NCBI RefSeq assembly: GCF_965263005.1
Contig: NZ_OZ253579.1
Location: 1,731,668 to 1,795,667, forward strand
Direction: 5' to 3'
Source: Candidatus Rariloculus sp.
GTDB lineage: Bacteria; Pseudomonadota; Gammaproteobacteria; Steroidobacterales; Rariloculaceae
Length of the DNA stretch: 64,000 bases
Each line of letters starts with the position of its first letter. The stretch's first letter is position 1. The notes below the pieces were generated by a model. That model was not told the DNA's origin. It did not search any database and saw only the letters and a list, made by a program, of their open reading frames with translations. Below are positions 28,287 to 63,790 of the stretch, piece after piece. The position numbers and the translations under genes were made by a program.

Positions 28287-29486
28287 ATGTCCAGAATGAT
28301 TGCCGCGGCCTTTGCGGCCCTTGTGTTTGCAGGCTCCGCATCGGCCCACCATGGTTTCGGCCGCTTCGATCGAAGCCGTGAGATCCAGGTCGAGGGGACG
28401 GTGACGGGGATCGACTTCGTCAATCCGCACGCCTACGTGTATTTCGATGCCGTCGGGCCGGACGGCGAAGTCCTCGAGATGCGTTGCGAAATGCGCGCCG
28501 CGACCGTGCTGCGACGCTCCGGCTGGTCAGCCGAGATGTTCGTCGACGGCACGCACATCGCGGTCGACGGCCGCCCGCATCGCGACGACCCGGCCTCGTG
28601 CTACGTGGAGACGCTCGCGCTCGGCGACGATGAGATCCTCGAGCGCTACCAGCAACTTGGCGAAGCGGCAGCTCCGGCCGAGCGTGCCGACCGGCCCGCA
28701 CGTTTGCCGAGCGGCGTGCCCAACCTTGCCGGCGATTGGGCGCAGGAACAGTACCTCATGGCGCGCCCGCCCCGGGGCGGCGGCGCGCTCGTGCCGAAGA
28801 GCCTGATCGAGGCCGTCAACGCCGGCGAGATCGCACCCGAGGATGTTCCCGAATCGGACTGGGGCGCCCGTCCGGTGACCTATACAGAAGCCGGCATGGC
28901 AGCCGCCGTCGAACGCGCCAACGCGCCGCCAGGATCGGCGCCGCGCCTGCGCTGCGAGATCACGAGCATCCTGTTCGACTGGACCTTCGACGGTCCTATC
29001 AATCGCATCACTCAGAGCGAGGATACGATCACGATCGAGTATGGCCGCGGTCTGACCCGCACCGTCCATATGGACATGGAAGATCACCCGGCGACGATCG
29101 TGCCCAGTCGCGGCGGGCATTCGATCGGCCGCTGGGACGGCGACACGCTGGTCGTCGACACGGTCGGATTCGAGCCCGGCATCCTCGCGGGAATGGCGCC
29201 CATTGTATCGGCGACGACGATCGACGACGACGCGGCCGGAATCGAGCCCGCCACGTCCGCCGGACCTGTTACCCACAGCGGCGAGCTGCACGTCGTCGAA
29301 CGCTTCACGCTCGATCCGGAAACGATGGCGCTGAAGCGCGATTACGCCGCCGAGGATGCCCTGTATTTTGCCGACCCATATGTCGGCTCCGCCGTCGTGT
29401 TCCCGGCCGACGCACAGTTCGCGGTCGATCAATGCAAGGAGTTGGCCTACGAGTACATCACGCCCGCGGAGGGCGAGGGGCAATAG
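28287..29486 (+). CDS. secreted fusion protein: A|HH...NPH module + 'GxWxGDTLV' two-Cys module (family member P1)
   Basis: In ORF 28248..29486. GGGGAGA RBS precedes ATG 28287. Signal peptide MSRMIAAAFAALVFAGSASA|HHGFGRFD...VNPHAYVYFD. C-terminal part has HSIGRWDGDTLVVDTVGF...HSGELHVVERF...DQC. Confidence 0.8.
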   Translation: MSRMIAAAFAALVFAGSASAHHGFGRFDRSREIQVEGTVTGIDFVNPHAYVYFDAVGPDGEVLEMRCEMRAATVLRRSGWSAEMFVDGTHIAVDGRPHRDDPASCYVETLALGDDEILERYQQLGEAAAPAERADRPARLPSGVPNLAGDWAQEQYLMARPPRGGGALVPKSLIEAVNAGEIAPEDVPESDWGARPVTYTEAGMAAAVERANAPPGSAPRLRCEITSILFDWTFDGPINRITQSEDTITIEYGRGLTRTVHMDMEDHPATIVPSRGGHSIGRWDGDTLVVDTVGFEPGILAGMAPIVSATTIDDDAAGIEPATSAGPVTHSGELHVVERFTLDPETMALKRDYAAEDALYFADPYVGSAVVFPADAQFAVDQCKELAYEYITPAEGEGQ

Positions 29487-29735
29487 CCGGCGCCTGGACA
29501 CCGACCGCAAATGTGGCGCAATTTCCTTGGAGCCTGCCGGTGGCCCGCAATATCCGTCTGCGCGTTTCTGCTGGCTACGGCCGACGCAGACGACCGCTCA
29601 GTGGCGCCGAAGGTATCCGAATTTCAGTTTGCCCGACTGGCTTTCGGCGCTGCTGTTGCCGGCCGTGTAACCCGCCACAAGCGGGGCGAACAGCGCCGCC
29701 AGTCAACTTCCGATTCCACCGGTCGTGTCGCCTAC

Positions 29736-30188
29736 CTATTGCTCGGCCGAGCCGATGAATGTTTTGCTGATAATTTTCCACCCCGTTCCATCATCGATCA
29801 GATGAAAGTAATTGGTGAAACTCATGTTGCCAGGAAATCCCGTTTCCGTGAGCGTCACCGCGGCCACCTGCCCATCCATCTCGACGCTGACGATTTGCGA
29901 CCGATACTCCGCGCCTGAGTCCCTCAGCCGAAGGTTTTCCATGTCCTCGATAAACGGCGTGGGGTCGGCCACGATCAGTTGATCGCCGAGGTAGCCGTTC
30001 ATGACCGCTCTGTCATGGAACACGCTGCGCAGTTTGTCGCCATCCCCCTCGTACGTTCCCTGCGTGTACAACTCGATTACCTCGTCAATGCTTGCCGCTT
30101 CAGGTGCTGGCGCCTGCGGGTACCCAATCGCGGGCAGCAACAGCGATGACAGCAATACCGCGCCAATCCACTTCTCGACCAAATTCAT
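29736..30188 (-). CDS. NTF2/SnoaL-like (lumazine-binding-like) secreted protein
   Basis: 150-aa ORF with signal peptide. IELYTQGTYEGDGDKLRSVFHDRAVMNGY...NYFHLIDDGTGWKIISKTF is typical of the NTF2-fold 'putative lumazine-binding' family. Confidence 0.65.
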   Translation of the reverse strand: MNLVEKWIGAVLLSSLLLPAIGYPQAPAPEAASIDEVIELYTQGTYEGDGDKLRSVFHDRAVMNGYLGDQLIVADPTPFIEDMENLRLRDSGAEYRSQIVSVEMDGQVAAVTLTETGFPGNMSFTNYFHLIDDGTGWKIISKTFIGSAEQ

Positions 30189-30207
30189 TTTCTATCCCCT
30201 CATCGAA

Positions 30208-30375: not shown

Positions 30376-30391
30376 ACCCGCTCCATGGACT

Positions 30392-30433
30392 GCTCGGCGA
30401 TGGGGATGTCGGCATATGAGGTACACGGCCCCG
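30392..30433 (+). mobile_element. ~41-bp remnant of an IS left end (5' UTR plus first 6 transposase codons)
   Basis: GCTCGGCGATGGGGATGTCGGCATATGAGGTACACGGCCCCG matches the reverse complement of 43927-43968 with 3-4 mismatches. That region is the start of the transposase fragment MRYTAP.... Confidence 0.6.
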
Positions 30434-33184: not shown

Positions 33185-33589
33185 ATGCGTGTCGTAGGAA
33201 TCCTCTCGATTGTCGCTTCCTTCGGGTTTGCCGCGGCGCCATCGACTCTGGCGCATCATTCGTTCGCAGCGCAGTTCGACCCGACCAAGCCCGTCACCCT
33301 TGAAGGAACGGTTACCAAGGTCGAGTGGCGAAACCCCCATATCTGGGTATACCTGGACGTCACCGACGCCGATGGCGCTGTGACTTCCTGGGAATGTGAA
33401 GGCGGGGCGCCGAACGCACTCACAAGACGGGGATGGAGCAGCCAAACCTTGAAGCCCGGCTCCACGCTCGAGATTCATGGCTACCTCGCAAGAAACGGGA
33501 CCAATACCTGCAACGCTCGAACGTGGATCTATGAGGGTCGAACCGTGTTCGCTGGGGAAGCCAGCGACGGCGGCCCCTCGCCTGATTAG
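33185..33589 (+). CDS. small secreted A|HH...NPH module protein (DUF6152-like)
   Basis: 134-aa ORF. Signal peptide ...APSTLA|HHSFAAQFDPTKPVTLEGTVTKVEWRNPHIWVYLDV...RRGW...KPGSTLEIHG. Confidence 0.8.
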   Translation: MRVVGILSIVASFGFAAAPSTLAHHSFAAQFDPTKPVTLEGTVTKVEWRNPHIWVYLDVTDADGAVTSWECEGGAPNALTRRGWSSQTLKPGSTLEIHGYLARNGTNTCNARTWIYEGRTVFAGEASDGGPSPD

Positions 33590-33620: not shown

Positions 33621-34457
33621 ATGAGACACGCAAGTTTAGTCGTCACCAGCTCGGTCACGATGGCTGCGGCCTTGAACCTCTGGTTCCTCGCAGTGTCGCC
33701 GGCGTTCGCACAACGTGCCGTGTACGAGCGCAACGTTGTCCTTACGGAACAACCCGAGCCGGACGGCACGCCTGTTCCACGAACGGCTGACGGGCGCGCG
33801 GACCTCAGCGGAGTCTGGAACAAGGCGATTCACCAAAACACCGCTGCGCCCGTCGAACCGCTGCCTTTCACGCCGGACGGGCTGAAAGCGTTCAACGACG
33901 TGGCGAACATCATCGATCCCACGGCGCGCTGCATCCTTCCTGGCGTGCCGCGCGTCAACAACTCACCGTACCCGATGCAAATCATGCAGATGCCGGACCG
34001 GGTCGTCTTTGTCTATGAGTACATGCATAACTTCCGGGTGATCTATACGGACGGGCGTGGCCACCGTGAGAACTGGGAGGCTTCCCTGATGGGTGACTCG
34101 ATCGGCCGCTGGGATGGCGACACGCTCGTGATCGATACGGTAAACCTGACCGATCGAACACGTCTCGATGATCACGGCAACGTGCACAGCGACGCACTGC
34201 ACGTGATCGAGCGCTGGCGTCGCATCAGTGCGAACGAGCTGTGGTACGAAGCGACGATAGACGACCAGAAGTACTACACGGAGCCCTGGACAACCGGTTA
34301 CGTCATTCCTCTGGCCCCGCCGGATTGGGAGATCATGGAATACGCATGCACCGACAACAACAAGGACCTGTACGACGGCCACCTGCAGCCTGGCTCTCTC
34401 AGCGGATCGGGGCGGGATGGCACGGCGCTCGCTACGCCACCGATTTCGAGGGAGTGA
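33621..34457 (+). CDS. secreted 'GxWxGDTLV' two-Cys module protein (family member P2)
   Basis: In ORF 33477..34457. GGAGA RBS precedes ATG 33621. Signal peptide. ARCILPGVPR...FRVIYTDGRGH...DSIGRWDGDTLVIDTVNL...HSDALHVIERWRRI...EYACTDNN. Confidence 0.8.
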   Translation: MRHASLVVTSSVTMAAALNLWFLAVSPAFAQRAVYERNVVLTEQPEPDGTPVPRTADGRADLSGVWNKAIHQNTAAPVEPLPFTPDGLKAFNDVANIIDPTARCILPGVPRVNNSPYPMQIMQMPDRVVFVYEYMHNFRVIYTDGRGHRENWEASLMGDSIGRWDGDTLVIDTVNLTDRTRLDDHGNVHSDALHVIERWRRISANELWYEATIDDQKYYTEPWTTGYVIPLAPPDWEIMEYACTDNNKDLYDGHLQPGSLSGSGRDGTALATPPISRE

Positions 34458-34643: not shown

Positions 34644-34720
34644 CGGGGTGTAGCTCAGCCTGGTAGAGCACTGTCTTCGGGAGGCAGGGGCCGGAGGTTC
34701 AAATCCTCTCACCCCGACCA
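34644..34720 (+). tRNA. tRNA-Pro (anticodon CGG)
   Basis: 77 nt, folded by hand. Acceptor CGGGGTG/CACCCCG, D arm GCTC...GAGC, anticodon stem CTGTC/GGCAG with loop TTCGGGA (CGG), T arm GGAGG-TTCAAAT-CCTCT, encoded CCA. Close to E. coli proK. Confidence 0.93.
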
Positions 34721-36818: not shown

Positions 36819-39382
36819 CTAGAAACGGTACCTGAATTCGACGCCGACCTGACGAGGCACGCCGACGTTCACCAGCGTGATCGCCGGCGGCGCGTTTCCC
36901 CTGGGGTTCAGCGACGCAATGCCGGTGAACACGTACGCCGGATGGTTATCGGGCTTGTATGGGAACACCGTGTTCGATGTGCCTCCAGCCCATGCCGCGC
37001 CACCAGTGATGTATTCCTCGTCGGCACAGTTGGTGCAGTACAACGATGCGTTCCAGGTGCCATCCGGCGGCGTGTAGCCGACGCGCAGGGTGAGCAGATC
37101 GTATTCCGGGATTCTAAGTGTCGTCGAATCCTGTCCGCTTGAGTTCTGCTCGTCTTTGTAGGCATAGTCGATCGATGCTCTGATGATCGCACCCGAGTTC
37201 AGGTCCCAGGTGTTGGATAGGCCGAGGTTGTAGCCGAGATCCGGGGCACGGCTGAAGTTGGAGTCGAACTCGACCCCCGACGTGAGATTCAGGATTTCAT
37301 CCCAATTGGCATCCAGCGTGCCGGCGCCGAGCTTGAACTGGAGCGAGTCGGTCAGAAGCGCCTGAAGCTCAAGCTCGACGCCCGAAATCTCGGCCGAGCC
37401 GACGTTGATCGTACAGCGCCTGGCGCACCGCGTGTCAGCGGTCACTGTAAGCTGCTTGTCTTCGTAGTCCATCTGAAAGTACGTGACGTTTGCGCGCAGG
37501 CGGCCGCTTGCAGACTCGATGCGCGTTCCAATCTCGTAGTTCCAGACTTCCTCGGGCTGAAACGGTGTATCGATATCGTCCGGCTGATCGTTCGTGCCAC
37601 CGGACTTGAAGCCCTTCGAGGCCGCGGCATACAGCATCACGATATCGGTAGGCTGCCATTCGAGCGCGACGCGCGGTGTCACCGACTCGAACGTATCCGT
37701 GCCGGAAAGTGTAGCGGCAGCGGCGGACGGGACGATGTTCTCGTTGGCATCGAGGAAACACGGATTCGTGGCTGTACAGCCGCCGTAAGTGTCACCATCC
37801 GGGTTAACGTACAGTACATTTCGACCCCCCCGTCGATCGATATCTCGATAGTTCGAGTTGTTGTCCGGGCCGTTAGGGTCTATTGCGTGGATTTCGAACA
37901 GTCGCCGATCGAGTTCGGCGTCGAAAACACCGAGGTTGTACGCCGCGTACGACTTGTCGTCTTCGGTCCAACGCGTGCCGAGCGTCAGCGTGAAATTCTC
38001 ACTGAACTGCCAGTCCACCTGAGCGAATATGCCGGTGCTATCGGTTTCCTCCTGTGCGTTTGTGAGATGTTCGAGTGCGCCCCACTGGAATCCGCCCGCC
38101 CATCGGTAATCCTTGTTCGACAATAGCCTCAGGCCAGGTTCTTCGACCGAATAGTAGAGCCCCGCGACCCAGTTGAGTCGGTCGCTTTCCGAGACGCCAT
38201 TGAGCTGAAACTCCTGCGACCAGAAGTCGCTGAAGTTGTTCGTGCCGCCATCGAAGAACGATTCGGCGTACATGCTTTCGTCCGACTCGCGTTGCTCAAG
38301 TGTGTCCATGTCGCGCCAACCGGTGATCGAGCGCAATGTCAGCCGGTCGGAAATGTCGTAGGAAATGTCGAGCGTGACACCGGTGCTCTCGGCCGTGGTA
38401 AAGCCGATAGGGCCGGTTCCTGCAACGTGGTACAGGCTGTCCGGGATCGACGGTGCGTAATGTTCGGGTGTGCCCGCCGGAAAGATCGTTTGATAGGCAG
38501 CCAGATTCGAGATGCCGCCAGTAAAGATTGGCGCCCCGGTGTCGCCCTCGATTTGGGGAGTCGCCGGATCATCCCAGCCGCCGTTGAAACCGAAGTAATC
38601 GATCAACTTCGATGCGCCGCCATTCGATTCCGACTCGCTGCGGTTGATGTTGATGTCGATCGTCAGGTCATCGGACGGCTGGAACCGGAATTGCGCAGAG
38701 AAGTAGTCCGTATCGTCGGCACCAAGCCCCGCGCCGTCGGACAGGCGCTCCAGATAACCGTCGCGTTCCAGATGCGAATAGGCGAAGCGCGCGGCGGCAT
38801 TGTCGCCAAGCGGCAGTTGATGGCTGCCTGAACGTTTGCCCGGTCGTAGTCGCCCAGACCGACCAACACGTCACCGGAGACACCGCCGCCGATGTCCGGC
38901 TTGACAGTCACGTAGCGGATCGCGCCACCGGTCGAGTTTTTGCCGAAGAGCGTTCCCTGCGGACCGCGCAGCACTTCGACTCGCTCGACGTCGAGGAGTC
39001 GCAGGAAGTTGGTGAACGGACGCCCGTAATACACGTCATCGATGTAGACACCGACGGCGGGATCGAGCACCGGACTGATGCGTGCCTCGTTGATGCCGCG
39101 TATCGAGAACTGGGCGCCCACGTTGGCACGGCCGGTGCCATCGCCGATGCTCACGTTCGGTACGAAATCGGCCATGGCCTGAGGATCGCTGATCCCGAGG
39201 CGATCTAGTGTGTCGGCCGACAACACCGTGATCGCGACCGGTACCGACTGCAGGTCTTCTTCTCGTCGCTGAGCGGTGACGAGGATTTCTTCGAGGACAC
39301 CCGCCTGTCCAAGCGCAAGCGGTGTGTAAAGAGGCACGGATACGGATGTCGCAATGGCAACGCTGAGCAGGCGCAGTTTCAT
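36819..39382 (-). pseudogene. TonB-dependent receptor with a single frameshift (or sequencing error) near 38815
   Basis: ORF 38663..39382 carries the signal peptide plus plug (EEILVTAQRREEDLQSVPVAITVL...LRGPQGTLFGKNSTGGAI). ORF 36819..38606 carries the barrel, ending ...VGVEFRYRF. After ...VQAAIN the family-like sequence LPLGDNAAARFAYSHLERDGYL continues in another frame. Confidence 0.85.
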
Positions 39383-41969: not shown

Positions 41970-43211
41970 ATGCGAACTGTACTTCTTCGCTTTCAAGCGG
42001 CAGTTGCCGTACTGGCAGGAGCGTTCGTCGCGCCCGGTGTCACGCTGGCGCACCATTCGGCTATCGCATTCGACGAGACTCAATTCGTCGACGTGACCGG
42101 CACTGTCACCACGTTCATCTGGCGAAATCCTCACCTGATCGTGCATGTCGAAACCGAAGGGTCCGATGGCGAACCGGAGGTCTGGCCGATCGAAGGTCAG
42201 AGTATCGCGATGCTGATTCGAGCGGGATTCGACCGCGACGTGGTGCACGAAGGCGATCGAATTACGGTCAAGGTGTATCCGATGAAGAATGGGGAGCCGG
42301 GCGGGCTGCTGCAGGGTCTCATTTCTGCCGACGGAACCGCGTATTCGATGGACAGTGCAGATGCGCCGGAAAGGCGGCGCCAACCCGTGCCGTCTCTCGT
42401 TGCTTTTATTCCACCCCCGGAAAGGGAAACATGGCAAATGCGAGAGGAGAAGACGCGGCCGCCGAATCTGCCAATCGTCTCTGATGGCACGGGCACCGGA
42501 GACTCCGAGTCCGCGGGCCTGATGTCGGGAGCGCTCGACCCCGACAACCTCGCCAGGGAACGACCCGTGCCGCCGTTCGACCTGACCGGTGTCTGGCAGT
42601 TTCGCGGCGAGGATGAATGGCGCGCGAACTACGGGTCATACGAATTCAAGCCCATGCCCGAACTGACCCCGAAAGGCCAGGCATTCTACGACGCCTATAT
42701 GGAGGCCGCAGCGCAGGGGGATCGCTACTTCGACCCGACCGCGGAGTGCTACCCGGCCGGGATGCCGCGACTCATGACTCGCTATGGCTCCCTCATGATG
42801 CTGCAGTATCCGACTGTGATCTTCATGGTTTCGCGACTCAGTAACGAGTATCGCGTGATCTTTCTCGACGGTCGCGAGCGCCTGCCCGGTAGCCGACTGG
42901 ATCGCAACTGGAGCGGCGAGTCGCTGGGATACTGGGAAGGTGACACACTCGTCATCGAAACAGAAGGGTTTACGGACGAGAATCATCTGATGCAGGCTGG
43001 TGTCATCACGGGCACCCAGCTCAAGATCACCGAGCGATACCGATCGATCAACGATGGAAATACGCTCGTGATGGACTTTACCTTCGAGGATCCCGAGCAT
43101 TGGGTTGGGGAGTGGAACCACATTAAGTTTCGGGATCGCGTCCTGCGTTCCGACATAAAGGAAGCGAACTGCATACCGGCCGACAATCTCGCGCTACCGG
43201 GCCTGGGCTGA
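41970..43211 (+). CDS. secreted fusion protein: A|HH module + two-Cys module (family member P4)
   Basis: In ORF 41928..43211. GAGGAGA RBS precedes ATG 41970. ...PGVTLA|HHSAIAFDETQFVDVTGTVTTFIWRNPHLIVHVE. C-terminal part AECYPAGMPR...YRVIFLDGRE...ESLGYWEGDTLVIETEGF...ITERYRSI...EANCIP. Confidence 0.8.
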   Translation: MRTVLLRFQAAVAVLAGAFVAPGVTLAHHSAIAFDETQFVDVTGTVTTFIWRNPHLIVHVETEGSDGEPEVWPIEGQSIAMLIRAGFDRDVVHEGDRITVKVYPMKNGEPGGLLQGLISADGTAYSMDSADAPERRRQPVPSLVAFIPPPERETWQMREEKTRPPNLPIVSDGTGTGDSESAGLMSGALDPDNLARERPVPPFDLTGVWQFRGEDEWRANYGSYEFKPMPELTPKGQAFYDAYMEAAAQGDRYFDPTAECYPAGMPRLMTRYGSLMMLQYPTVIFMVSRLSNEYRVIFLDGRERLPGSRLDRNWSGESLGYWEGDTLVIETEGFTDENHLMQAGVITGTQLKITERYRSINDGNTLVMDFTFEDPEHWVGEWNHIKFRDRVLRSDIKEANCIPADNLALPGLG

Positions 43212-51442: not shown

Positions 51443-51444
51443 CT

Positions 51445-53910
51445 TCAGTCTCCCCGAGCCTGCAGCGCGTCACCGGTACCGGAATCCGGGACGGCCCGCA
51501 TCCGGAACGCCGCGCTCTGGGCTACACCCAGGACGATCGACTCGAAACTATAGCCTGCCGAAGCGGAATCGGCCACGATGCCGCGCACGGTCGGCATGTC
51601 GTAGTACCTGAGACCCCGCCCGAGCCCATATCTCATGAGTTTCTCCGCCAGCGCCTGAACGAACAGTTCGGGCTCCGCCGTGAGCGCGCGGCGCAACTCC
51701 TCGGGATTGTTGACGGGCGTACCGCCGGCAAGCTCGCCCGTCGAATCGATCGGTAGACCGTTCTCTCGCTCCCGTGTCCGCCATTCGCCGATCACGTTGA
51801 AGTTCTCGAGCGCTTGGCCGAGCGGATCGATGACACCGTGGCAGTGGTTGCAGGACGGTTCCGTGCGGTGGCGCGCCAGACGCTCGCGAACCGTACGGGG
51901 GATTTCGCCCGGCGCCGGCGTCAGGTCGGTCTCGACGCCTGCCGGCACCGATGCCGGCGGTGTCGCGATGACGTGCTCCATGATCCATGCGCCGCGCAGC
52001 ACCGGCGATGTGCGGTCAGGATAGGAGGTCACCATCAGGACGCTGGCCTTGCCGAACAGTCCCCAGCGCCGAGTGTCCTCGAGCTCGACGCGCCGGAACC
52101 GGTCGCCGAGGACGTCGCCGATCCCGTAGTGGCGCGCGAGCCGTTCGTTGACGAAGGTGTGGCTCGCCGTGAGCAGCTCGAGCACGCTGCGTTCCTCGCG
52201 CAGGATGCTGTCGAGATAAAGCGCCATTTCCTCCCGGAAGGCACGGCGCAGATCCTCGTCGAAGTTCGGATAGAGCCGCGGGTCGGGGTCGATTGCGTCG
52301 ACGCGGCGCACACCAAGCCACTGGAACGCGAAGTTCGTCACGAGCGAGGCCGAACGTGGGTCGGCCAGCATGCGCCGAACCTGCTGCTCGAGCACGCCCG
52401 GGTCGCTGAGCAAGCGTTGCTCGGCGAGCTCAAGCAGCGTCTCGTCGGGCCCTTGGCTCCAGACAAAGAACGCAAGCCGCCAGGCGAGCTCGAGGTCGCT
52501 GATGGCGTACGCGGCGCCGGGATCGAGCCCGGCCGGGGGCTCCCCGGGCTCGGCACGGTAGAGGAACTTCGTGCTCCCGAGTACAGCCATGACGCCTTTC
52601 TGGATGCCGGTCTCGAAATTTCCTCCGGCGCGACCGGCATCGTAGAAGCCGAGCAGCGGCTCAAGATCGTCGTCGTCGACGGGACGGCGAAACGCCCGGT
52701 AGGCGAGGTTCTGAAGGATCTCCCGGGCGCACGGACTTTCTTCGCTTTCGGTCTGCGGGTAGCAGACGAAGACGCGGTCGCGGCTTTCGGTTGATTCGCC
52801 AATACCGGTCGGGTTGTACGGCCCGGTGATCTCAAGCCCGTAAAGCCGCGGTATGTCGGGTACGCCTTCGCCCGGCGTCAGCGAGCGCAGCAGGTAATCG
52901 CCTTCGGCGAAGCTGCGCGCGACGAAACTCGCCGCGACATTGCGGTGGCCGGCCCTGACGCTGACGCGAATGTTCCTGAAGCGGTTCCTGATCCGATCGA
53001 CGCCCTGGATCTGTTCCTGGTCGAGAGTTCTCGAGTCTTCCTCGCCGCCGATAAAGTCCTCGTATACCTTGGCGCCGTCGATGGTCACGACGAGCCGGTG
53101 GCGGTACTCGAGCCATCCGTAGGGATAGCCCCGCAATTCCGAGCCCGGAATCGAGGAGATACTGAGGCTGATCTCGTATTCGCCGTCGGCCGGAAAGTAG
53201 TGCTCGACGGCCATCCCGCCGCGCGTCCCGAGCGGCAGCCCGGCGATGTGCGTGGTCCGGTTTTCGCGGTCGGAGCGGTAGCCGGTCCGAACCGGTTCGG
53301 GCGCGGCTTCGCCGATGGCAAGGATGCTGATGTCGCGCGCCGCCGCGAGGTATTGGTCGAGATGCGTAGGCGATACGCTCAGCACTTCGGCAATGTTGTC
53401 GAAACCCTCGCTCGCGATGTCGCTCGGAAGCAGTGCTGCGGCGTCGACCCGAATGCCGAAGAGATCCTCGATTGCTCTTGCATACTCGGTGCGGTTCAGC
53501 CGGTGCAGCGCGACGCGGCCGGGCATTGCGCCGCGTGTCGCGGCCTCCTCGTCGAGCGCAACCTCAAGCGAAGCGACCAACGCGTCCACACGTTCGGCGT
53601 CGGGCCGAGGACCGCCGGGCGGTGGCATGAGGTCGCCGCGCAGCTTGCGCACGACTTTCTCCCAGGTCTCGGGGTCGGCGGAGACGTCGTCAGGCACGGC
53701 CGCGTCAAATGACAAGTCGCCAGCGTATTCGGAATCGTTGTGGCAGTCAGTGCAATAACCGTCGAGGATCGGCCAATGGGCCGAAAGGGCGGCGCCGGGC
53801 GGGGCGGCTTGTTCCGCGCAGGCGCCGAGCAGCGCGATGCCGGCGATTCCGGCCGCGGCGCGCAGTCCGCGCGCTGCCAATGGCCTGTGAACCGAGCTAG
53901 AGCGAGCCAT
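51445..53910 (-). CDS. DUF1592/DUF1588/DUF1585-type protein with two CxxCH motifs
   Basis: In ORF 51445..53985. Start at Met-26 (53910) gives a signal peptide. CTDCHNDSEYAGDLSF near the N-terminus and CNHCHGVIDPLG near the C-terminus. Usual partner of DUF1552. Confidence 0.8.
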   Translation of the reverse strand: MARSSSVHRPLAARGLRAAAGIAGIALLGACAEQAAPPGAALSAHWPILDGYCTDCHNDSEYAGDLSFDAAVPDDVSADPETWEKVVRKLRGDLMPPPGGPRPDAERVDALVASLEVALDEEAATRGAMPGRVALHRLNRTEYARAIEDLFGIRVDAAALLPSDIASEGFDNIAEVLSVSPTHLDQYLAAARDISILAIGEAAPEPVRTGYRSDRENRTTHIAGLPLGTRGGMAVEHYFPADGEYEISLSISSIPGSELRGYPYGWLEYRHRLVVTIDGAKVYEDFIGGEEDSRTLDQEQIQGVDRIRNRFRNIRVSVRAGHRNVAASFVARSFAEGDYLLRSLTPGEGVPDIPRLYGLEITGPYNPTGIGESTESRDRVFVCYPQTESEESPCAREILQNLAYRAFRRPVDDDDLEPLLGFYDAGRAGGNFETGIQKGVMAVLGSTKFLYRAEPGEPPAGLDPGAAYAISDLELAWRLAFFVWSQGPDETLLELAEQRLLSDPGVLEQQVRRMLADPRSASLVTNFAFQWLGVRRVDAIDPDPRLYPNFDEDLRRAFREEMALYLDSILREERSVLELLTASHTFVNERLARHYGIGDVLGDRFRRVELEDTRRWGLFGKASVLMVTSYPDRTSPVLRGAWIMEHVIATPPASVPAGVETDLTPAPGEIPRTVRERLARHRTEPSCNHCHGVIDPLGQALENFNVIGEWRTRERENGLPIDSTGELAGGTPVNNPEELRRALTAEPELFVQALAEKLMRYGLGRGLRYYDMPTVRGIVADSASAGYSFESIVLGVAQSAAFRMRAVPDSGTGDALQARGD

Positions 53911-54871
53911 CCAACCTACCCTGCCACCATAAACCGCCGTAAACGTTGGCGATGAACCGGTCGCGGTTGTGGCCCCATGCCGCATCGAACTCGGCCGTCA
54001 CGCCGGCGGCGACCATCTCTTCCACGCTCTTTCCCTGTCGCATCAGGGTCGCCACGCGTTCGCGAACGGTGGAGATCATCTCGACCTGTTCCTCGAGGTG
54101 GTCGCGCGACTGCGCGGGCCCGGCGCCCGGCACGATAATCGTGTCGCTGTCGCTCATGTCGATGAGTTTCTGCGTCGCGTCCATCAAGCCGCCGATCCAG
54201 CCGCCCGTTGCGTAGTCGAGGACGGGATACGCGCCGGCCGAGACGGCGCCACCCGTGGCAATGACGTTGCGCTTGAGGAAAAAGACATAGATATCGCCGT
54301 CGGTGTGGGCTTCGCGAAGATGCCCGTACTCGATCCGTTCGTCACCGAGATCGAGTGCGATCGGCTGCGGGTCCGACGAAAAAAACGTCTCCGTCGGCAG
54401 GGCGGCGGCCGGCCGTGGCTCGTAGGTGCGATCCTGCCAGTCGACATAATATTCCGTGCTCATCCACAGCCGGGTGTTCTCGTGCGCGACGATTTTCGCG
54501 CCTTGCCGGCCGAAAGTCTCGTTCGCACCCGTGTGCGCGGTGTGCCAATGGGTATTGAACAGCACGTCGACGGGCGCATCGCCGAGCATCGCGGTGACGC
54601 GCCCGATGAGCCCGGCCGCGTTTTCGGGCGAGCCGCTGTCGACGAGTACGGTACCGCCCGTGCCCTGCAGGAGCAGCACGTTTCCGCCCGCGCCCGTGAT
54701 CTGGGTGAGACCGTCTCGCAACGCGAGCGCGGCGATCGGCCCGGATCCGGATTGAGCGAAGGCGGAGCGCGTGAGGCCGCCGAGCCCGGTGCACGCCGCC
54801 GACGCGCACGCTGTGCCCAGGGCAAGCCGCAGAAAGCCGCGCCGGTCTTCGTGAGCAGCCATGGGGGTCAT
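53897..54871 (-). CDS. Tat-signal MBL-fold metallo-hydrolase
   Basis: In ORF 53897..54964. M(TP)MAAHEDRRGFLRLALG (twin-Arg). VLVDSG...LFNTHWHTAHTG (HxHxxH variant) ...HTDGD. The stop overlaps the downstream start by 14 nt. Confidence 0.8.
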   Translation of the reverse strand: MTPMAAHEDRRGFLRLALGTACASAACTGLGGLTRSAFAQSGSGPIAALALRDGLTQITGAGGNVLLLQGTGGTVLVDSGSPENAAGLIGRVTAMLGDAPVDVLFNTHWHTAHTGANETFGRQGAKIVAHENTRLWMSTEYYVDWQDRTYEPRPAAALPTETFFSSDPQPIALDLGDERIEYGHLREAHTDGDIYVFFLKRNVIATGGAVSAGAYPVLDYATGGWIGGLMDATQKLIDMSDSDTIIVPGAGPAQSRDHLEEQVEMISTVRERVATLMRQGKSVEEMVAAGVTAEFDAAWGHNRDRFIANVYGGLWWQGRLDGSL

Positions 54872-54964: not shown

Positions 54965-56083
54965 CTACTCCCCCGCGTTGATGTCGAAGAAGTCGATCGA
55001 TTCCGGGTCTTCGATGTACGTTTCCTCGTGAATCGGGGTGACGCGCTCGGGAATCGGATCGCCATTGGCTATCGCCTCGGCGACACGCTGCTCGAAGTCG
55101 CGCTCGCCCGTGAGCGAGTTGCGCACCGCACCGTTGCCTTCATGACACGAGTATTCGTAGATCCGGTAGCCGGGCTGAGTCGTGTACATCATCCGGACCG
55201 TAAGGGGCGCCGTGTAGGTGACCGGATCCTCGATGGTCGCGACGTACTCGATCATTTCCGGATCGACGCGCGTGAACCGCTCCATGATCGTCATCGCTTC
55301 GCTGTGACGCGTGCCGTTGCCGTTGCCGCCGATGCTGGTCATGTCGGTGAGGTTCCGCGTCTCGACAACGAGCGTGTCGCCGTCCCAGTAACCGCGGGAA
55401 TTGCCGAGGTACTGCCGGACGCCGTCGTCCATGTGCGGCCGCTCGCCGAGCTTGATGACGCGCGTGTCGTGAATCATCTCGTAGGAGATTGCGACAGAGT
55501 CCACGGTCTGAACTACTCTGAGCCCGTTGCCGTAAACGACGGGGAACTGCGAGCCGAGTATCCCGCGCGTGATGCACCGGTCGTAGAGCGTGAAGTCCTC
55601 CAGACTGTCGAATGGACCTGGCCCGAAGCTGCCGCGGTCGCTCGGTGCGGCGCGCGCGAGTCCCGCCTCGGTCATCGCGGGCGTCCGCCCGTCCGACGGG
55701 TCGATGACGAGCGACGTGTACCCGAACGTCCGCGTGCCAGCCTCACCACGGCGCGAGAAGCCCTGCTCGTTGACGTGGAAATTCCGCGTTTCCTCGTCCG
55801 CCGCGGCGCGCTCGGCGAACTCTTCCGGTGTGAGTTTCTGACGGTCGCCGAATTGCGCGGGGCGTTCGCGCGGCACGCTGCGCATGTCGTCCGTGCTCCA
55901 GGTCCCTTCGAGGCTCGGGTGACCCCATGACGTCCGTGGTACTTGCCAGGCCGGATCGACGATGGCCGCAGCCGACGCCTCGGCCGGAACCTGGCCGCTG
56001 CCGACTTGCGCGTTTACGGCGCTCGCAGCGAGCGCTGCGGCGATCACGGCGGATATATACGGTGTTCGTGGTTCCTTGCGCAT
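54965..56083 (-). CDS. secreted 'GxWxGDTLV' two-Cys module protein (family member P5)
   Basis: 372-aa ORF with signal peptide. LYDRCITRG...NSRGYWDGDTLVVETRNL...HSEAMTIMERFTRVD...YEYSCHEGN. Confidence 0.8.
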   Translation of the reverse strand: MRKEPRTPYISAVIAAALAASAVNAQVGSGQVPAEASAAAIVDPAWQVPRTSWGHPSLEGTWSTDDMRSVPRERPAQFGDRQKLTPEEFAERAAADEETRNFHVNEQGFSRRGEAGTRTFGYTSLVIDPSDGRTPAMTEAGLARAAPSDRGSFGPGPFDSLEDFTLYDRCITRGILGSQFPVVYGNGLRVVQTVDSVAISYEMIHDTRVIKLGERPHMDDGVRQYLGNSRGYWDGDTLVVETRNLTDMTSIGGNGNGTRHSEAMTIMERFTRVDPEMIEYVATIEDPVTYTAPLTVRMMYTTQPGYRIYEYSCHEGNGAVRNSLTGERDFEQRVAEAIANGDPIPERVTPIHEETYIEDPESIDFFDINAGE

Positions 56084-56229: not shown

Positions 56230-56559
56230 ATGTCTGACGATCGGAAGAACCTCGATCGCCGCTCGTTCACGGGTGGTGTGCTTGGCGCCACCCCAGGCAT
56301 CGGTGCCGCCGCATTGCTGGCTGATGAGCCGAAGGCCCAGCAACCCGCTGCGCCGCGCAGCGCCAATGCCCGCGAGGGCGAGGGCTACCTGATGGGTGTG
56401 GCGACGCGCAACGACGAGAACGACCGCGCGGATCTCGTGATCCTCGATGCCGAGCACATCGCCGACGGCCCCGTCGCGACGGTCAAGCTGCCGATGCGGG
56501 TCGTGGGCCAGGTGCACGGCTGGTGGGTGCCGGAAGCGCAGCTTCCGGCGGCATCCTGA
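56230..56559 (+). pseudogene. carotenoid-oxygenase (RPE65/CCO) family remnant: Tat-like N-terminus plus last ~55 aa only
   Basis: 109-aa ORF. DRRSFTGGVLGA, then EGEGYLMGVATRNDENDRADLVILDAEHIADGPVATVKLPMRVVGQVHGWWV, the conserved CCO C-terminus. About 370 aa of the beta-propeller are missing. Confidence 0.6.
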
Positions 56560-58659: not shown

Positions 58660-59877
58660 TCAGCCGGGCGCCGTCGGCCGGGTCCCGTCGGCCATGCCGG
58701 CACTGAACGCCGGCCGCGGCCGGCGTTGCTTGAGCAGTGGCGCGACGAGCCGCCGGTACGCGAGCGTCAGGCCCGTCCAGACCATGATCAGGCTCGTCAC
58801 AGACACGAGGCCTGCGATGGTCTGGCCGGTGATGCCGAGCGCCTCGCCCGTGTGCAAAAAGCGAATCCAGGAGCGCGCCTGCCTGCCTGTCGATTGGCTG
58901 TCGAAAGGCTGCCACTGCTCCACGTGTCCCGTGTAACGGTCGAGCGTCACGCGATGCCGTTTCTGCGGCTGGCCACCGTTGCCCTGATCGATCGTGAGCC
59001 GCGCCGTCGCTGAATCGGCGCGCGGCAGCTCGAGCGTAATCGTCTGCCAGCCGTCGAGCTGCATCGATGCTCGCTCGAACAGCGCGTCGAACGGTAGCGG
59101 CGCGAGCCTTGTCTCATATGCGCCGTGCGGACCGGCGTGCGCGGCAGTCGGTTCAACTGCGCGTCCGCCCGTCGGCCCGCCGCTCCCTGGCGGATTCTCG
59201 CCGACGCTCAGGTAGACGAGATCGTTGGCCCAACCGTACGAGAATACGACGGCCGTAGCGACGACGATGGCGAGCGGAATCGCCGACCAGATTCCGAAGA
59301 CATGATGCCAATTTAAATCACGCGCCTTGGCGGTGACGGCCTTCCCGTTGAAGAGCAGGCGTGTCTTGAACGCAACCCATTTGAACGACGGGGGTAGCCA
59401 GAGGTAGAACCCGCTCAATATCAGGAACAGAAACGCGAGATTGCTCGCGCCCGTGATCGCGCGCGGGATGGCGCGGTTCTCGCGGCTCGCGTTGAACCAG
59501 CGGTGCCAGCCCGTCATCGCGCCGAAGAAGCTGCGCAGCCGTTCGCCGCCTGGCTCGAAGACCTCGCCGCTGTAGCGGTCGATCCGCAGCGCGCTGGAGC
59601 GGCCCGCGCTGACTGTAGCCGGCGCGCGAGGATCAATCGACAGGCTCACCGAGGTCGCCTCGAAGTCAGGATCCTGCCCGCGCGCCGCATCGAGCAGTTC
59701 GGCAACCGGCAGCGGCGCCGCGCCGGGTCGCGGCTCGGCAAACTGTGCGCGGTCGACCCACGCCAGCATCTGCCGCTCGTAGGTCAGCACGACGCCTGTA
59801 GCTGACATCATGATCACGATGACGCCTGTCAGCACACCGCAGATGAGGTGAATCCAGAAAATTGTCTTGCGAAACAC
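58660..59877 (-). CDS. PepSY-associated TM-helix protein (PiuB/FoxB-like)
   Basis: In ORF 58660..59937 (TTG). GTG 59877 gives MFRKTIFWIHLICGVLTGVIVIMMSATGVVLTYERQ, the typical family N-terminus. C-terminal ...IRFLHTGEALG. Confidence 0.8.
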   Translation of the reverse strand: MFRKTIFWIHLICGVLTGVIVIMMSATGVVLTYERQMLAWVDRAQFAEPRPGAAPLPVAELLDAARGQDPDFEATSVSLSIDPRAPATVSAGRSSALRIDRYSGEVFEPGGERLRSFFGAMTGWHRWFNASRENRAIPRAITGASNLAFLFLILSGFYLWLPPSFKWVAFKTRLLFNGKAVTAKARDLNWHHVFGIWSAIPLAIVVATAVVFSYGWANDLVYLSVGENPPGSGGPTGGRAVEPTAAHAGPHGAYETRLAPLPFDALFERASMQLDGWQTITLELPRADSATARLTIDQGNGGQPQKRHRVTLDRYTGHVEQWQPFDSQSTGRQARSWIRFLHTGEALGITGQTIAGLVSVTSLIMVWTGLTLAYRRLVAPLLKQRRPRPAFSAGMADGTRPTAPG

Positions 59878-59933
59878 GGTTCTTGGGCGATTTGGTGGAA
59901 TTGGGAGCGGAGCGACCAGAAGTCGGCCCAATT

Positions 59934-60055: not shown

Positions 60056-60454
60056 TTGGGGCGCCCCGTGTACTTGAGACTCCTCCGAGCTCGCGCAAGG
60101 ATCGGCGCGCTCACGTTGGCCGCGGCGAGCTGGCCCGCATACGCTCATCACGGCGGCGCCGTCGAGTGGCAACAGAGCGTGCACGGCCCGGTCACAGGCT
60201 TTGCGACTGATTTCGCGTTCCGCTTTCCGCACGTCACTGTCTTCATCGATGTCAGCACTGACGGCGCCACCGAGAACTGGGCCGTCACGACGCGTTGGAC
60301 GCCGACGATCCTGCGACAGCACGGTTGGACTCGCAACTCGATCAAACCCGGCGATACGGTAACCGCGACTTACGCGCCGCACGTGACGAATTCGACGGTT
60401 GTGCAGATGCGCACGATCGAGGTGAACGGTGACGAGCTACCGCTGCAGTTCTGA
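60056..60454 (+). CDS. small secreted A|HH...PH module protein (divergent DUF6152-like)
   Basis: 132-aa ORF (TTG 60056, alternative GTG 60068). ...AAASWPAYA|HHGGAVEWQ...FRFPHVTVFIDV...QHGWTRNSIKPGDTV. A TATAAT lies at 60027-60032. Confidence 0.7.
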   Translation: MGRPVYLRLLRARARIGALTLAAASWPAYAHHGGAVEWQQSVHGPVTGFATDFAFRFPHVTVFIDVSTDGATENWAVTTRWTPTILRQHGWTRNSIKPGDTVTATYAPHVTNSTVVQMRTIEVNGDELPLQF

Positions 60455-61289
60455 CGGGTCCGCTCGACGGCGCGTGCGGACGTGCTTGTCTCGCGTTTGT
60501 ATCGTGAGCTTCGTCGCTGTGTTGTTCGTATTCGCCATTCCCCTTTCGTCGCCGGGCCAGCAGTCTCGAGACGCCTTCGACCCGCGCGATCTCGCCGGAC
60601 ACTGGGATCGCAGCACGCCGATCGAGTCTTTCGCCCCTACGCCTGGTGCAACGCGCGAGGCAAACGCCGCCGAAACCGCGCAAGCACCGTTCACGGTGCA
60701 GGGCAGGGCGCTGTTTGAGGCCAACATGCCGGGCTACGGACCGCGGCGCCAGATGCGACGGAACGACCCGCTCGGACGCTGCGAACCGATGGGCCTGCCG
60801 CGCCTGCTCAATGTCGAGATCGTCGCCCCGCACTCAACGTTCGAGATCGTGCAAACACCGGGGAGAATTCTGCAGTTCTTCGAGTACCGTCACGACTGGC
60901 GCGAGATCTGGATGGACGGCCGCTCGCTTCCGGCGCTCGAGGACACCTATCCGAAGTGGAATGGCTACTCGGTCGGCCGCTGGGAGGGCGACACCCTCGT
61001 CGTCGAGTCGATCGGATTCGACGATCGAAGCTGGCTCGACAAGCTCGGCTATCCGCATTCGGAGGCGATGCGCCTCGAGGAGCGGTATCGGCGTATCGAC
61101 GCCGATACGCTCGAGCTCACGATGACGAGCATCGATCCCGTCGTCTACAGCGAACCTTTCCGGAGCGACCGGAAACTGTTTCACTTGAATCGCGACAAGG
61201 CCGCTGGCTGGGACGAGCAGATTTACTGTATCCCTGCCGAAGAGATATCCTACCAGGACATCGTCGGAACAGGTAACACGATTGAGTGA
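60429..61289 (+). CDS. secreted 'GxWxGDTLV' two-Cys module protein (family member P6)
   Basis: 286-aa ORF. GAGG lies 7 nt before GTG 60429, which overlaps the upstream gene by 26 nt (alternative GTG 60474). LGRCEPMGLPR...WREIWMDGRS...YSVGRWEGDTLVVESIGF...HSEAMRLEERYRRID...QIYCIPAEE. Confidence 0.8.
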   Translation: MTSYRCSSDGSARRRVRTCLSRVCIVSFVAVLFVFAIPLSSPGQQSRDAFDPRDLAGHWDRSTPIESFAPTPGATREANAAETAQAPFTVQGRALFEANMPGYGPRRQMRRNDPLGRCEPMGLPRLLNVEIVAPHSTFEIVQTPGRILQFFEYRHDWREIWMDGRSLPALEDTYPKWNGYSVGRWEGDTLVVESIGFDDRSWLDKLGYPHSEAMRLEERYRRIDADTLELTMTSIDPVVYSEPFRSDRKLFHLNRDKAAGWDEQIYCIPAEEISYQDIVGTGNTIE

Positions 61290-61396: not shown

Positions 61397-62632
61397 ATGA
61401 ATCAGACTGCGAACGGCAAATGGGATACGCGCTATGAATGGAAAGTCGTCACGTTACTCGGTATTGGATTTGGATTGGTGGGCCTCGATCGGTGGATCAT
61501 CGCGCCGCTCTTTCCATTCATCGCTCAGGATCTCGGCCTTGCTGAAGGCGACATAGGGAGGCTCGCAGGCGTCCTCGGGATACTGTGGGGCATATTTGCA
61601 ATCTTCTCGGGCCGTTTGTCGGACAAGATTGGCCATCGCAAGATCCTGATTCCAGCGATCGTCATTTTCTCGCTGATGTCGGGCCTGTCCGGCATGGTCC
61701 AGGGACTCACGGCGCTGATCGTCATTCGCGCTTTCATGGGCGCGATGGAAGGCTCTTATTGCCCCACGAGCTTCACAGCCGTCGCGGCCGCTTCGAAACC
61801 GAAACGCAGGGGCTTCAATCAGGGCATACAGCAAAGCGGCTTTCCGCTGCTGGGCCTGGCGCTCGGCCCGATCATCGCGACACAACTGTTGGAGTACATG
61901 TCGTGGCGCGGCGTGTTCTGGGTGGTTGCAATTCCAGGATTTATCATAGGCGCGTTGTTGTTTTTCGTTTTGCGCGAGCCGAAAGATACGCAGGCCGGAG
62001 AGATCATCGGCGCGACGCAGGCTGGCGGTAGCTGGTTCGAGGTCCTCAAGGCGCCGAATATCGTTGTCTGCATGCTCGCGCTGCTCTGCGCAATGGCCTG
62101 CATCTTCGTGCTCAGCGCGATGGTGCCTGTCTATCTTGTCAACGTGCAGCAATTGACGCCGGTACAAATGGGAATCGTTACTTCGGCGCTGGGATTTGGC
62201 GGATTTTTCGGTCAGTTCGGGTGGCCGGGTCTGTCCGACAAGTTCGGCCGCAAGCCGCTCGCTATCCTGGGCTTCATCGGCGCGACCATCACGGCGTGGT
62301 GGTTCTTCACCACGGGTGCGGTGATGCTGCCGCTGTTCGTTTCCTTGTTTATCTGCTCATTCTTCTGCCTGGGCAACATCGCGCTGATCACGGGACCCAT
62401 CGCGACGGAGTCCGCCCCGATCGGATTGATCTCGTCCGCCATCGGTATCGTCGTTGGCGCCGGGGAGATCTTCGGTGGCGGCGTTGCACCGTATCTCGCC
62501 GGCACCGTTGCAGATGCGTATGGATTGCCCAGCGTGTCCTATGTTGCGATTACGGGCGTCGCGCTCGGAATCGTGGTTTGCTTCTTCCTCAAGGAGACCG
62601 CGCCCAGTAAGGTCGCGGCCCAGGTAGCTTAG
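61397..62632 (+). CDS. MFS transporter
   Basis: 411-aa ORF with 12 predicted TM helices. GRLSDKIGHRK (MFS motif A-like, loop 2-3) and GLSDKFGRKP (loop 8-9). Confidence 0.85.
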   Translation: MNQTANGKWDTRYEWKVVTLLGIGFGLVGLDRWIIAPLFPFIAQDLGLAEGDIGRLAGVLGILWGIFAIFSGRLSDKIGHRKILIPAIVIFSLMSGLSGMVQGLTALIVIRAFMGAMEGSYCPTSFTAVAAASKPKRRGFNQGIQQSGFPLLGLALGPIIATQLLEYMSWRGVFWVVAIPGFIIGALLFFVLREPKDTQAGEIIGATQAGGSWFEVLKAPNIVVCMLALLCAMACIFVLSAMVPVYLVNVQQLTPVQMGIVTSALGFGGFFGQFGWPGLSDKFGRKPLAILGFIGATITAWWFFTTGAVMLPLFVSLFICSFFCLGNIALITGPIATESAPIGLISSAIGIVVGAGEIFGGGVAPYLAGTVADAYGLPSVSYVAITGVALGIVVCFFLKETAPSKVAAQVA

Positions 62633-62677
62633 CGGTAAAGGGTCCGATCGGACCAACACTGACGGAGTGGTGCAGAT

Positions 62678-63790
62678 ATGAACTTAAAGAGATGGAATCG
62701 TTTGATTGTCGCGTCGTGGGTGAGTCTCGCCGTAGCCTTGAGTCTGGCGGCGCAACCCGCATCCGCGCAGTCGCAGCGAGGGCGCACGACAGCGGAGTGC
62801 GTTTCGCTTGCCGAGCAGTATCCCGATCTCGGCACGACGCAGAGCGTGTCGGCGAACCGGGAGTTCACGACGGTCTGGGGCTCGTTTGAACTACCGGGCG
62901 GGCCTTGCGGCTATGCATCGGCCGAGGAGCATTACAGCGTGCTGCTCGAGGGCGCGAAGAGCCGCGGCGGCCCGACGGAGCACACGATCGCGAGCCTGCC
63001 CGACTGGAGCGGGCACTGGGGCACTGAGAACGGAACGGGCGAGCTTGCGATCGTCGGCCGGCACTCGACGCCCGAAGGCATGGCGGTGCGGCTTACGCCC
63101 GACGCACGCGAGGTCTTTATGCACGACTACCGCATGTGGCGCGAGGACCACGCCATCGACCCGATCTCGTTTTGCCTGCCGCCGAACTTTCCGCGCTGGT
63201 TCACGGAGTACGGCTTCAGGGAGCAGTTTCTGGCGCCCGACAAGACCGTGCTCGGCAGCGAGATGGTTAACCAGTTCAGGCGCGTATTCACCGACGGGCG
63301 GCCGCATCCGTCCGACGAATGGCTCACGAACGAATGGCTCGGCTACTCGATCGGCTTCTGGGATGAGGACGTGCTGACGATCTGGACCAAGGGCATCAAG
63401 GAAGGCGTTCTGCAGCGCAACATGCCTCGCCAGACGAACCAGATGGAAGTCATCGAGCGCTGGCGCAGGGTCGATCCCGTCGCGGCCGGTGTCGATATCA
63501 CGCCGGACACGTTGGGCTCAGGGTACATTCCCAACGAACGCCTGGAAATCGAGGTCACGATGTACGACCCGACCTTCGTCGAGCCGTGGCATACCGTCGT
63601 TGCGTATTACAAGGAAGACGACCGCACTGCGGAGGCGAAGGAGCGGATCTGGCCGCACCAATGGGACTGCGTCGAGGGTTCGCAGTGGTTCATCACCGAT
63701 GAAGGCATCGTCAGTCAGTACGCACCGGGCGAGAAGCCTGACGTTACGAACCCCGATTTCTGGTTCGACGAGGAATACGTGCATCAGTAG
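62678..63790 (+). CDS. secreted two-Cys module protein, divergent (family member P7)
   Basis: 370-aa ORF with signal peptide. SFCLPPNFPR...FRRVFTDGRPH...GYSIGFWDEDVLTIWTKG...QMEVIERWRRVD...QWDCVEG. Confidence 0.7.
   Translation: MNLKRWNRLIVASWVSLAVALSLAAQPASAQSQRGRTTAECVSLAEQYPDLGTTQSVSANREFTTVWGSFELPGGPCGYASAEEHYSVLLEGAKSRGGPTEHTIASLPDWSGHWGTENGTGELAIVGRHSTPEGMAVRLTPDAREVFMHDYRMWREDHAIDPISFCLPPNFPRWFTEYGFREQFLAPDKTVLGSEMVNQFRRVFTDGRPHPSDEWLTNEWLGYSIGFWDEDVLTIWTKGIKEGVLQRNMPRQTNQMEVIERWRRVDPVAAGVDITPDTLGSGYIPNERLEIEVTMYDPTFVEPWHTVVAYYKEDDRTAEAKERIWPHQWDCVEGSQWFITDEGIVSQYAPGEKPDVTNPDFWFDEEYVHQ

Follow-up and report, generated by a model that had tools for sequence, protein, structure and literature searches.

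A 64-kb stretch of the genome of Candidatus Rariloculus sp. (contig NZ_OZ253579.1, positions 1,731,668 to 1,795,667; this whole stretch is termed the window) carries an array of genes for exported proteins built from two modules: a small one of ~105 residues, belonging to the family DUF6152, and a large one of ~200-230 aa, which is read here from its predicted fold as a calycin barrel. The modules occur both fused and as neighboring genes, and the pair is a conserved exported two-part system that is real and un-annotated. An earlier note on this DNA, made from the sequence alone, listed nine open reading frames (ORFs) of this kind between positions 28287 and 63790, seven with the large module and two with the small module alone, and took the fused and split forms as a sign that the modules work together.

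Each of the nine ORFs is present where the note had placed it (Table 1), and a Sec-type signal peptide is readable in all of them. Among the 610 six-frame ORFs of the 64-kb window, a large-module profile recovers exactly the seven listed proteins (E 2e-57 to 6e-89) and no others, and a small-module profile recovers exactly the five listed copies. The seven large modules are indeed homologous: in pairwise BLASTP with the database size set to 1e6, most pairs score E 1e-24 to 1e-4, the weakest being joined via other members, and identity to member B (33621..34457, hereafter B33621) is 26-35%. The motifs quoted in the note (two Cys, DGR, GxSxGxW(D/E)GDTLV, and ER) are all found, and the columns invariant across the seven window modules are C, R, G, S, L, E, R, D, and C; the limits given for the module held only in part, as the conserved region starts earlier than the proposed first Cys, at a D-L-S-G-x-W strand. 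In all five small modules, A↓HH stands at the predicted cleavage site (the arrow marks cleavage). The architecture is also as described, with three N-terminal fusions (28287, 40940, and 41970) and two separate upstream genes (33185 and 60056), the first of which lies 31 nt before its partner while the second overlaps its partner by 26 nt. In the public annotation, the 60056 gene begins at 60068, and member F (60429) has an unusually long N-region and an uncertain start.

The description of a seven-member family is right inside the window, but is an undercount overall, as the array runs past base 64000. In the flank, taken from the 1.27-Mb metagenome contig (ENA ERZ25071132) that includes the window, and given in window-equivalent coordinates, there are five further calycin modules and three further DUF6152 modules (64166-70532), for an array total of at least 12 calycin modules and at least 8 DUF6152 modules in ~42 kb. 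At the nucleotide level, the best match (75.5%) covers one gene and is to a Vicinamibacterales metagenome-assembled genome (MAG), the next best being to a MAG labelled Gammaproteobacteria. Array paralogues are 20-46% identical in either module; they are old, and the array does not reflect recent local amplification. Furthermore, the fused member K is nearest to the split pair J in both modules, and fusion or fission therefore happened more than once (at least twice). The fused member C has fused orthologues in other samples (P0127 and P0135). DUF6152-calycin fusions are a minority form, concentrated in the lineage of the window and these orthologues: DUF6152 is fused to none of the 145 top calycin representatives surveyed for double barrels, and the metagenome set added one more fusion.

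Table 1. Members of the array and genes beside them. Coordinates are window positions (window-equivalent past base 64000); HMM, hidden Markov model of the large module; arrow, predicted cleavage.
Feature	Coordinates	Strand	Basis
Member A, fused: signal peptide and DUF6152 (aa 1-123), linker, calycin (aa ~141-399)	28287..29486	+	DUF6152 69.5 bits; large-module HMM E 2e-57; ASA↓HHGF
Stand-alone DUF6152, 134 aa, partner of B	33185..33589	+	106.5 bits, E 8e-31; TLA↓HHSF
Member B, stand-alone calycin-like, 278 aa, 31 nt past DUF6152 gene	33621..34457	+	HMM E 6e-89
LysR-type regulator gene, co-directional with member C, 24 nt upstream	39614-40915	+	
Member C, fused DUF6152-calycin, 332 aa	40940..41938	+	DUF6152 57.9 bits; large-module HMM E 1e-71
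Member D, fused DUF6152-calycin, 413 aa, 31 nt past C	41970..43211	+	DUF6152 86.6 bits; HMM E 6e-73
Metallo-beta-lactamase-fold gene, after member E	53897-54862	-	
Member E, calycin-like, 372 aa, without DUF6152 neighbor	54965..56083	-	large-module HMM E 2e-69
PepSY_TM gene, divergent from the 60056 gene	58660-59892	-	
Stand-alone DUF6152, partner of F	60056..60454	+	52.8 bits; AYA↓HHGG
Member F, calycin-like, 286 aa, overlaps DUF6152 gene end by 26 nt	60429..61289	+	HMM E 2e-79
Major facilitator superfamily (MFS) transporter gene, upstream of member G	61397-62632		
Member G, calycin-like, 370 aa	62678..63790	+	large-module HMM E 4e-77
Further fused member	64166-65245		
Further calycin	65317-66153		
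Further calycin	67216-67935		
Calycin of further split pair	68093-68911	-	
DUF6152 of further split pair, 4-nt overlap	68908-69324	-	
Another fused member	69405-70532		

Predicted Folds and Conserved Residues

The earlier note had likened the small module to DUF6152, and this is correct: all five window copies match Pfam PF19649 at 52.8-106.5 bits (gathering score 27). The name DUF6152 was not found in the literature searched. An AlphaFold model of the protein encoded at 33185..33589 (49-sequence alignment; predicted local distance difference test score, pLDDT, 87) has the classical OB-fold strand order, in which a helix links strands 3 and 4. In the Protein Data Bank (PDB), Foldseek ranks OB domains highest (the LysRS anticodon-binding domain, SSB, PriB, and RecO, at E about 1e-3 and a template-modeling score, TM, of 0.5-0.6). 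DUF6152 is accordingly predicted to be an OB-fold. Conservation was assessed in 74 sequences of many taxa, taken from 80 genome loci and from the window together with its flank. Cleavage is predicted at (A/G/S/T)↓H-H, with H1 and H2 present in 70 of the 70 aligned copies; P28 and H29 occur in 72/72 and N27 in 69/73, while D9 (88%), W46 (95%), and E49 (92%) are also conserved. By the OB topology of the model, the invariant H29 sits in the N-P-H loop, at the barrel end where strand 1 starts; because this turn and the start of strand 1 share a barrel end, H1, H2, and H29 could be close together, as argued from the OB-fold topology alone. Tandem arrays of up to four DUF6152 genes occur in related sequences (L148 29-1616).

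For the large module, the note had recognized no function, and Pfam and NCBIfam likewise yield no match at E ≤ 1; the four stand-alone members match no Pfam family at that threshold, and no lipocalin or fatty-acid-binding protein (FABP) family in Pfam matches the module. Neither single-sequence nor profile searches found a sequence relative in the PDB, and every name seen for proteins of the family is "hypothetical protein." The model of mature B33621 (53-sequence alignment; pLDDT 90, predicted TM 0.89) consists of one short N-terminal strand and three helices, followed by eight long antiparallel strands. Its top Foldseek PDB matches are all intracellular lipid-binding proteins (CRBP1, FABP4, and CRABP2), a modest match at E 3e-4, probability 1.00, TM about 0.6 on the target (0.54-0.63 for CRBP1 and FABP4), and a root-mean-square deviation of 5-7 Å. 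We therefore read the large module, from the model, as a calycin barrel of FABP topology, ~100 residues larger and with a helical lid. The predicted fold agrees with FABP, CRBP, CRABP, bacterial lipocalins, and ZinT/YodA in its G-x-W first strand, helical lid, and antiparallel barrel, and departs from the FABPs and lipocalins in its added ~100 residues, its export, its conserved Cys pair, and a long W-L-D..G..H-S loop.

Conservation was assessed across 122 diverse members of the calycin family. The D-L-S-G34-x-W36 strand (G34 93%, W36 89%) is the first-strand signature of calycins, and C74 and C213, conserved at 97-98%, probably form a disulfide in the exported protein. The conserved stretch G128-x-S-x-G-x-W-E-G-D-T-L-V-V-D142, the long structured loop W151-L-D..G156..H159-S, and the polar residues E103, R109, H118, D142, H159, E167, R168, D185 (followed by P), and E210 complete the pattern. 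A profile search against 1.84 billion sequences, each representing a cluster at 50% identity, gave 22,142 relatives at E ≤ 1e-3, of which 13,914 reached E ≤ 1e-10. Genome matches are mainly from Acidobacteriota (Bryobacterales, Vicinamibacterales, and Terriglobia), and a few are from Gammaproteobacteria (Steroidobacteraceae and Pseudohongiellaceae) or Novosphingobium. Tandem double barrels make up 18 of the 145 top calycin representatives (P0258-P0351 among them).

Linkage of the Two Modules

The co-occurrence of the modules above chance, which the earlier note had made a test of its reading, is borne out in two independent surveys. The first, seeded on the calycin, covers 80 genome loci (±10 kb) with 143 calycin and 65 DUF6152 copies, and the second, seeded on another DUF6152 subfamily ([ERQ]F[QE]WTNPH), covers 80 metagenome loci (±4 kb). 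In the first survey, DUF6152 is directly upstream, on the same strand, of 47 of the 143 calycins (33%), as compared to a rough chance expectation of ~2%, even at the enriched local density of the survey loci. Seen from the other module, 57 of the 65 DUF6152 copies have a calycin as immediate neighbor (directly downstream in 48 and directly upstream in 9), with 7 more having one within 3 kb and a single copy having none. In the second survey, a calycin is present in 62 of the 80 loci, and those lacking one are mostly contigs shorter than ~2 kb; the arrangements, where S is DUF6152 and L is the calycin, include S-L, L-S, divergent L/S, S-S-L, and S-L-S-L-S.

DUF6152 stands N-terminal in every fused form, and some of the split gene pairs overlap by 4-26 nt. 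In addition, the identity matrices of the two modules correlate across 78 S-to-L pairs (Mantel r 0.62, p ≤ 0.0005). In 46 of these pairs, the closest relative by DUF6152 also ranks among the three closest by calycin, vs. ~3 by chance. These correlated matrices point to a stable partnership, to which the shared ancestry of adjacent genes contributes. The view of the earlier note that the two modules work together is supported, and none of the conditions that it set for a refutation came true: the large module falls into no characterized family, the seven proteins are homologous, and the modules co-occur well beyond chance.

Proposed Function and Its Alternatives

The pair probably handles a metal. 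We propose as the best-supported reading, with a probability of roughly 0.4, that a DUF6152 metal centre with an N-terminal His works with the calycin ligand-binding barrel as a periplasmic unit. Signal-peptidase cleavage after a small residue would leave the invariant His-His at the free N-terminus of DUF6152, with the third invariant His, in the N-P-H turn, at the same barrel end. DUF6152 would then chelate a transition-metal ion through its N-terminal His in the manner of a histidine brace, and would act in complex with the calycin barrel, which conserves many polar residues of a buried type and may hold a small organic ligand, or may complete or receive the metal site. The pair would constitute a periplasmic metal-dependent binding or catalytic unit, and the diverged paralogues (20-46% identity) would provide different ligand specificities. 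What the analysis shows directly are the predicted folds, invariant residues, export signals, linkage, fixed-order fusion, and co-diversification, while the binding of a metal, contact between DUF6152 and the calycin, and whatever ligand or chemistry is involved are inferred. The best reason to think of a metal is that His is absolutely conserved at the very position where cleavage is predicted. Secreted families with a conserved N-terminal His, of several unrelated folds, have been found experimentally to bind transition metals (2025; PMC12537917), and the N-terminal His in those families is conserved at 65-79%, compared to 100% in DUF6152 here. The fixed N-terminal position of DUF6152 in the fusions fits the need for a free alpha-amine, although the S-to-L gene order alone would equally give DUF6152-first fusions. 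The many polar residues conserved in the calycin also speak for the proposal; of these, H118 (0.86 vs. 0.58), H159 (0.86 vs. 0.61), and D142 (0.85 vs. 0.55) are more frequent in DUF6152-paired than in orphan calycins, a difference that may reflect subfamily structure alone.

Similar arrangements are known from the CopC-CopD, YobA-YebZ-YebY, and YcnI-YcnJ copper systems, in which a small secreted metal chelator with an N-terminal His is next to, or fused with, a partner, and in which this domain must stay N-terminal; here the metal site is predicted, and DUF6152 comes first in the fusions. CopC and YcnI are cupredoxin/Ig-like, whereas DUF6152 is a predicted OB-fold with no sequence similarity to them, and the partner of CopC and YcnI is a CopD membrane protein rather than a soluble calycin barrel. 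The secreted bacterial families DUF4198, DUF6702, and "anglerase" also have a conserved His directly after the signal peptide (PMC12537917). The His1/His28/His32 site predicted in DUF6702 has a spacing close to that of H1/H2/H29, and anglerases are fused N-terminally to a partner domain (PMC12537917), as is DUF6152 in the fusions of the array. These families differ from DUF6152 in having beta-sandwich folds and other partners (HupE/UreJ permeases), and DUF6152 is not mentioned in that paper or its supplements (PMC12537917). A small periplasmic barrel of OB-like shape, binding metal via His and a capping Trp, is also known from the Cu(I)/Ag(I) chaperones CusF and SilF.

Several observations weigh against the proposed metal-dependent pair. 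DUF6152 as a CusF homologue was rejected (hhalign probability 6.5%), the ligand residues do not align, and the top 50 fold matches of the DUF6152 model do not include CusF. In the promoter regions of the window, no Fur-box match rises above the window background, and no riboswitch was found in an Rfam scan, which returned a tRNA alone. The larger co-diversification test is confounded by the shared ancestry of adjacent genes, and a within-genome mirror tree of eight pairs is not significant (r 0.39, p 0.067). About two thirds of the calycin genes in the first survey have no adjacent DUF6152, and the barrel can therefore work alone or share a partner in trans. Finally, gene neighborhoods are heterogeneous. 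Among 254 neighboring ORFs in the genome loci, the commonest are TonB-type outer-membrane barrels (11), pyrroloquinoline quinone (PQQ) dehydrogenases (10), and metallo-beta-lactamase-fold genes (7), and no family exceeds ~4%. The linkage to TonB receptors that the earlier note had suggested surveying is weak (11/254, and 4 of 148 neighbors in the DUF6152-seeded metagenome loci), and such receptors are very abundant in the phyla surveyed. A constant third partner was likewise rejected, the ten small ORFs beside the pairs belonging to unrelated families.

Acquisition or homeostasis of a metal, as opposed to catalysis, is a possible if doubtful role: DUF6152 would be a periplasmic metallochaperone comparable to CopC, YcnI, or DUF6702, passing metal to calycins that bind a metal or metallophore (cf. 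ZinT, siderocalin), or to a membrane protein. The invariant N-terminal His-His suits this role, as does the smaller number of DUF6152 than calycin copies (8:12 in the array and 65:143 in the first survey), which is expected of a chaperone with multiple clients. TonB-type receptors, PepSY_TM, and MFS genes are also nearby, with the caveat that the receptors are not clearly enriched. A candidate membrane partner is DUF6644, which accounts for 17 of the 148 neighbors in the DUF6152-seeded set and occurs in 18 of the 160 surveyed loci, usually as tandem pairs abutting the cluster (L095, L098, L102, L109, L115, L129, L132, L133, L139, L158, L159, and L165; also L032, L035, L045, L053, and L074), and at some of these beside DUF6152 with no calycin (L095, L159, and L165). 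Judged by reading its sequences, it looks like a membrane protein with four transmembrane segments, and its invariant residues are His34, Lys104, and a G-R-W motif. One of eight DUF6644 proteins matches CopD (PF05425; E 9e-4, 20 bits, below the cut-off of 32), and two of eight match DUF2214 at sub-threshold scores (E 0.004-0.009). A relationship to the E. coli CopD-family protein YebZ is not supported (hhalign probability 0.15%), neither the window nor its extension contains DUF6644, the Fur-box scan of window promoter regions found no metal-regulator site, and twelve deeply diverged calycins in a single array far exceed the usual need of metal homeostasis.

Alternatively, the calycins could be metal-independent carriers that shuttle periplasmic lipids, quinones, aromatics, or alcohols, with DUF6152 as an OB-fold adaptor whose histidines are structural, pH-sensing, or used for docking. 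The FABP/CRBP-like fold with its GxW strand and helical lid would favor a carrier, along with the orphan status of most calycins, the tandem double-barrel proteins, and the periplasmic catabolic or oxidative neighbors (PQQ dehydrogenases, metallo-beta-lactamase-fold proteins, tannase, glyoxalase, and GSDH). We consider this unlikely, given that a fully conserved His-His at the predicted cleavage site and a third invariant His are hard to explain without chelation, and that the barrel keeps more charged residues than a plain lipid carrier needs. Handling of haem or another tetrapyrrole, in which a CcmE-like OB-fold with a flexible His tail would deliver haem to, or accept it from, a nitrobindin- or nitrophorin-like barrel, is very unlikely. 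DUF6152 does combine a predicted OB-fold with terminal histidines, calycin barrels are established haem binders, H118, H159, and H164 of the barrel are conserved, and TonB receptors and PepSY_TM genes are nearby; the surveyed neighborhoods, however, have no recurring haem-uptake or cytochrome-maturation genes, no CXXCH or other haem motif is present, and the fold matches FABP/CRBP and not nitrobindin. Least probable of all is that the two families just share operons or genomic islands and have no joint function. Such co-location would account for the heterogeneous neighborhoods and for the insertion sequence (IS) remnants, gene fragments, and tRNA gene of the region, but not for recurring fusions with a fixed module order, overlapping coding regions, adjacency across phyla in two independent surveys, and the co-diversification of the partners.

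To return to the metal-dependent pair, a more specific and decidedly improbable form of it is that DUF6152 and the calycin represent a new class of periplasmic metallo-oxidoreductase, with an OB-fold centre of the histidine-brace type facing an FABP-like pocket. This centre, holding copper or some other metal, would act on small molecules of a hydrophobic or aromatic kind, and the arrays of paralogues would widen the range of substrates open to soil and marine Acidobacteriota and Proteobacteria.

Both folds, and the principle of an N-terminal His, are already known; the literature searched does not describe its OB-fold version, the calycin family without a model, or the recurrent pairing and fusion of the two. 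The calycin family comprises ~22,000 cluster representatives and has no Pfam or NCBIfam model, solved relative, or name. The pair is widespread in soil and marine bacteria and is common, often in multi-copy arrays, in Acidobacteriota, a dominant and poorly understood soil phylum. The absolutely conserved N-terminal His-His provides a concrete biochemical hypothesis: if it is true, the OB-fold joins a small set of N-terminal-His metal sites, and such a site is tied, in a combination that would be new, to a barrel that binds ligands.

Other Features of the Region

PQQ-dependent dehydrogenases recur beside calycin genes (10/254; e.g., loci L009, L013, L021, L051, and L069), which suggests a possible connection with the oxidation of alcohols or sugars in the periplasm. 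In the window, a TonB-dependent receptor at 36819-39382 (-), near members C and D, is split over two frames, with the Plug ORF at 38663-39382 and the barrel ORF reaching up to 38606; the barrel frame stays open further upstream, which implies a frameshift near 38.67-38.72 kb, reflecting either a pseudogene or a long-read indel error.

A tRNA-Pro gene (CGG; 34644-34720, +), the sole Rfam match in the window, is located 187 nt downstream of B33621; tRNA genes are common integration sites of islands. GC content is 0.59 in the 36-44 kb portion, vs. 0.64-0.67 elsewhere in the window, and a transposase-type helix-turn-helix ORF is present at 43674-43943. Short gene fragments include RPE65 (109 aa) at window positions 56230-56559 (+), and Ribonuc_L-PSP (53 aa) and ABC_tran (126 aa) at L001 6588-6749 and 11846-12226. 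With these fragments and the helix-turn-helix ORF, the region has the look of accessory DNA in decay. In sample ERZ26694896, an IS element (HTH_Tnp_1 and rve_3) lies between member A and a Lumazine_bd_2 gene (L002 3484-4396), and the window (~29500-29730) lacks this element, indicating strain-level variation inside the array.

Downstream of member E and the metallo-beta-lactamase-fold gene, a PSCyt/PSD multi-domain protein (821 aa) and a DUF1552 (HXXSHH) protein are encoded at 50096-53910 (-), followed by ankyrin-repeat and 2-oxoglutarate-Fe(II) oxygenase genes. A second arrangement of calycin, metallo-beta-lactamase-fold, and calycin genes is found past the window (64166-70965; survey locus L084 12770-19569). 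Adjoining the fused member K is a secreted ORF of 133 aa in which G-x-W motifs are repeated and which may encode a small lipocalin.

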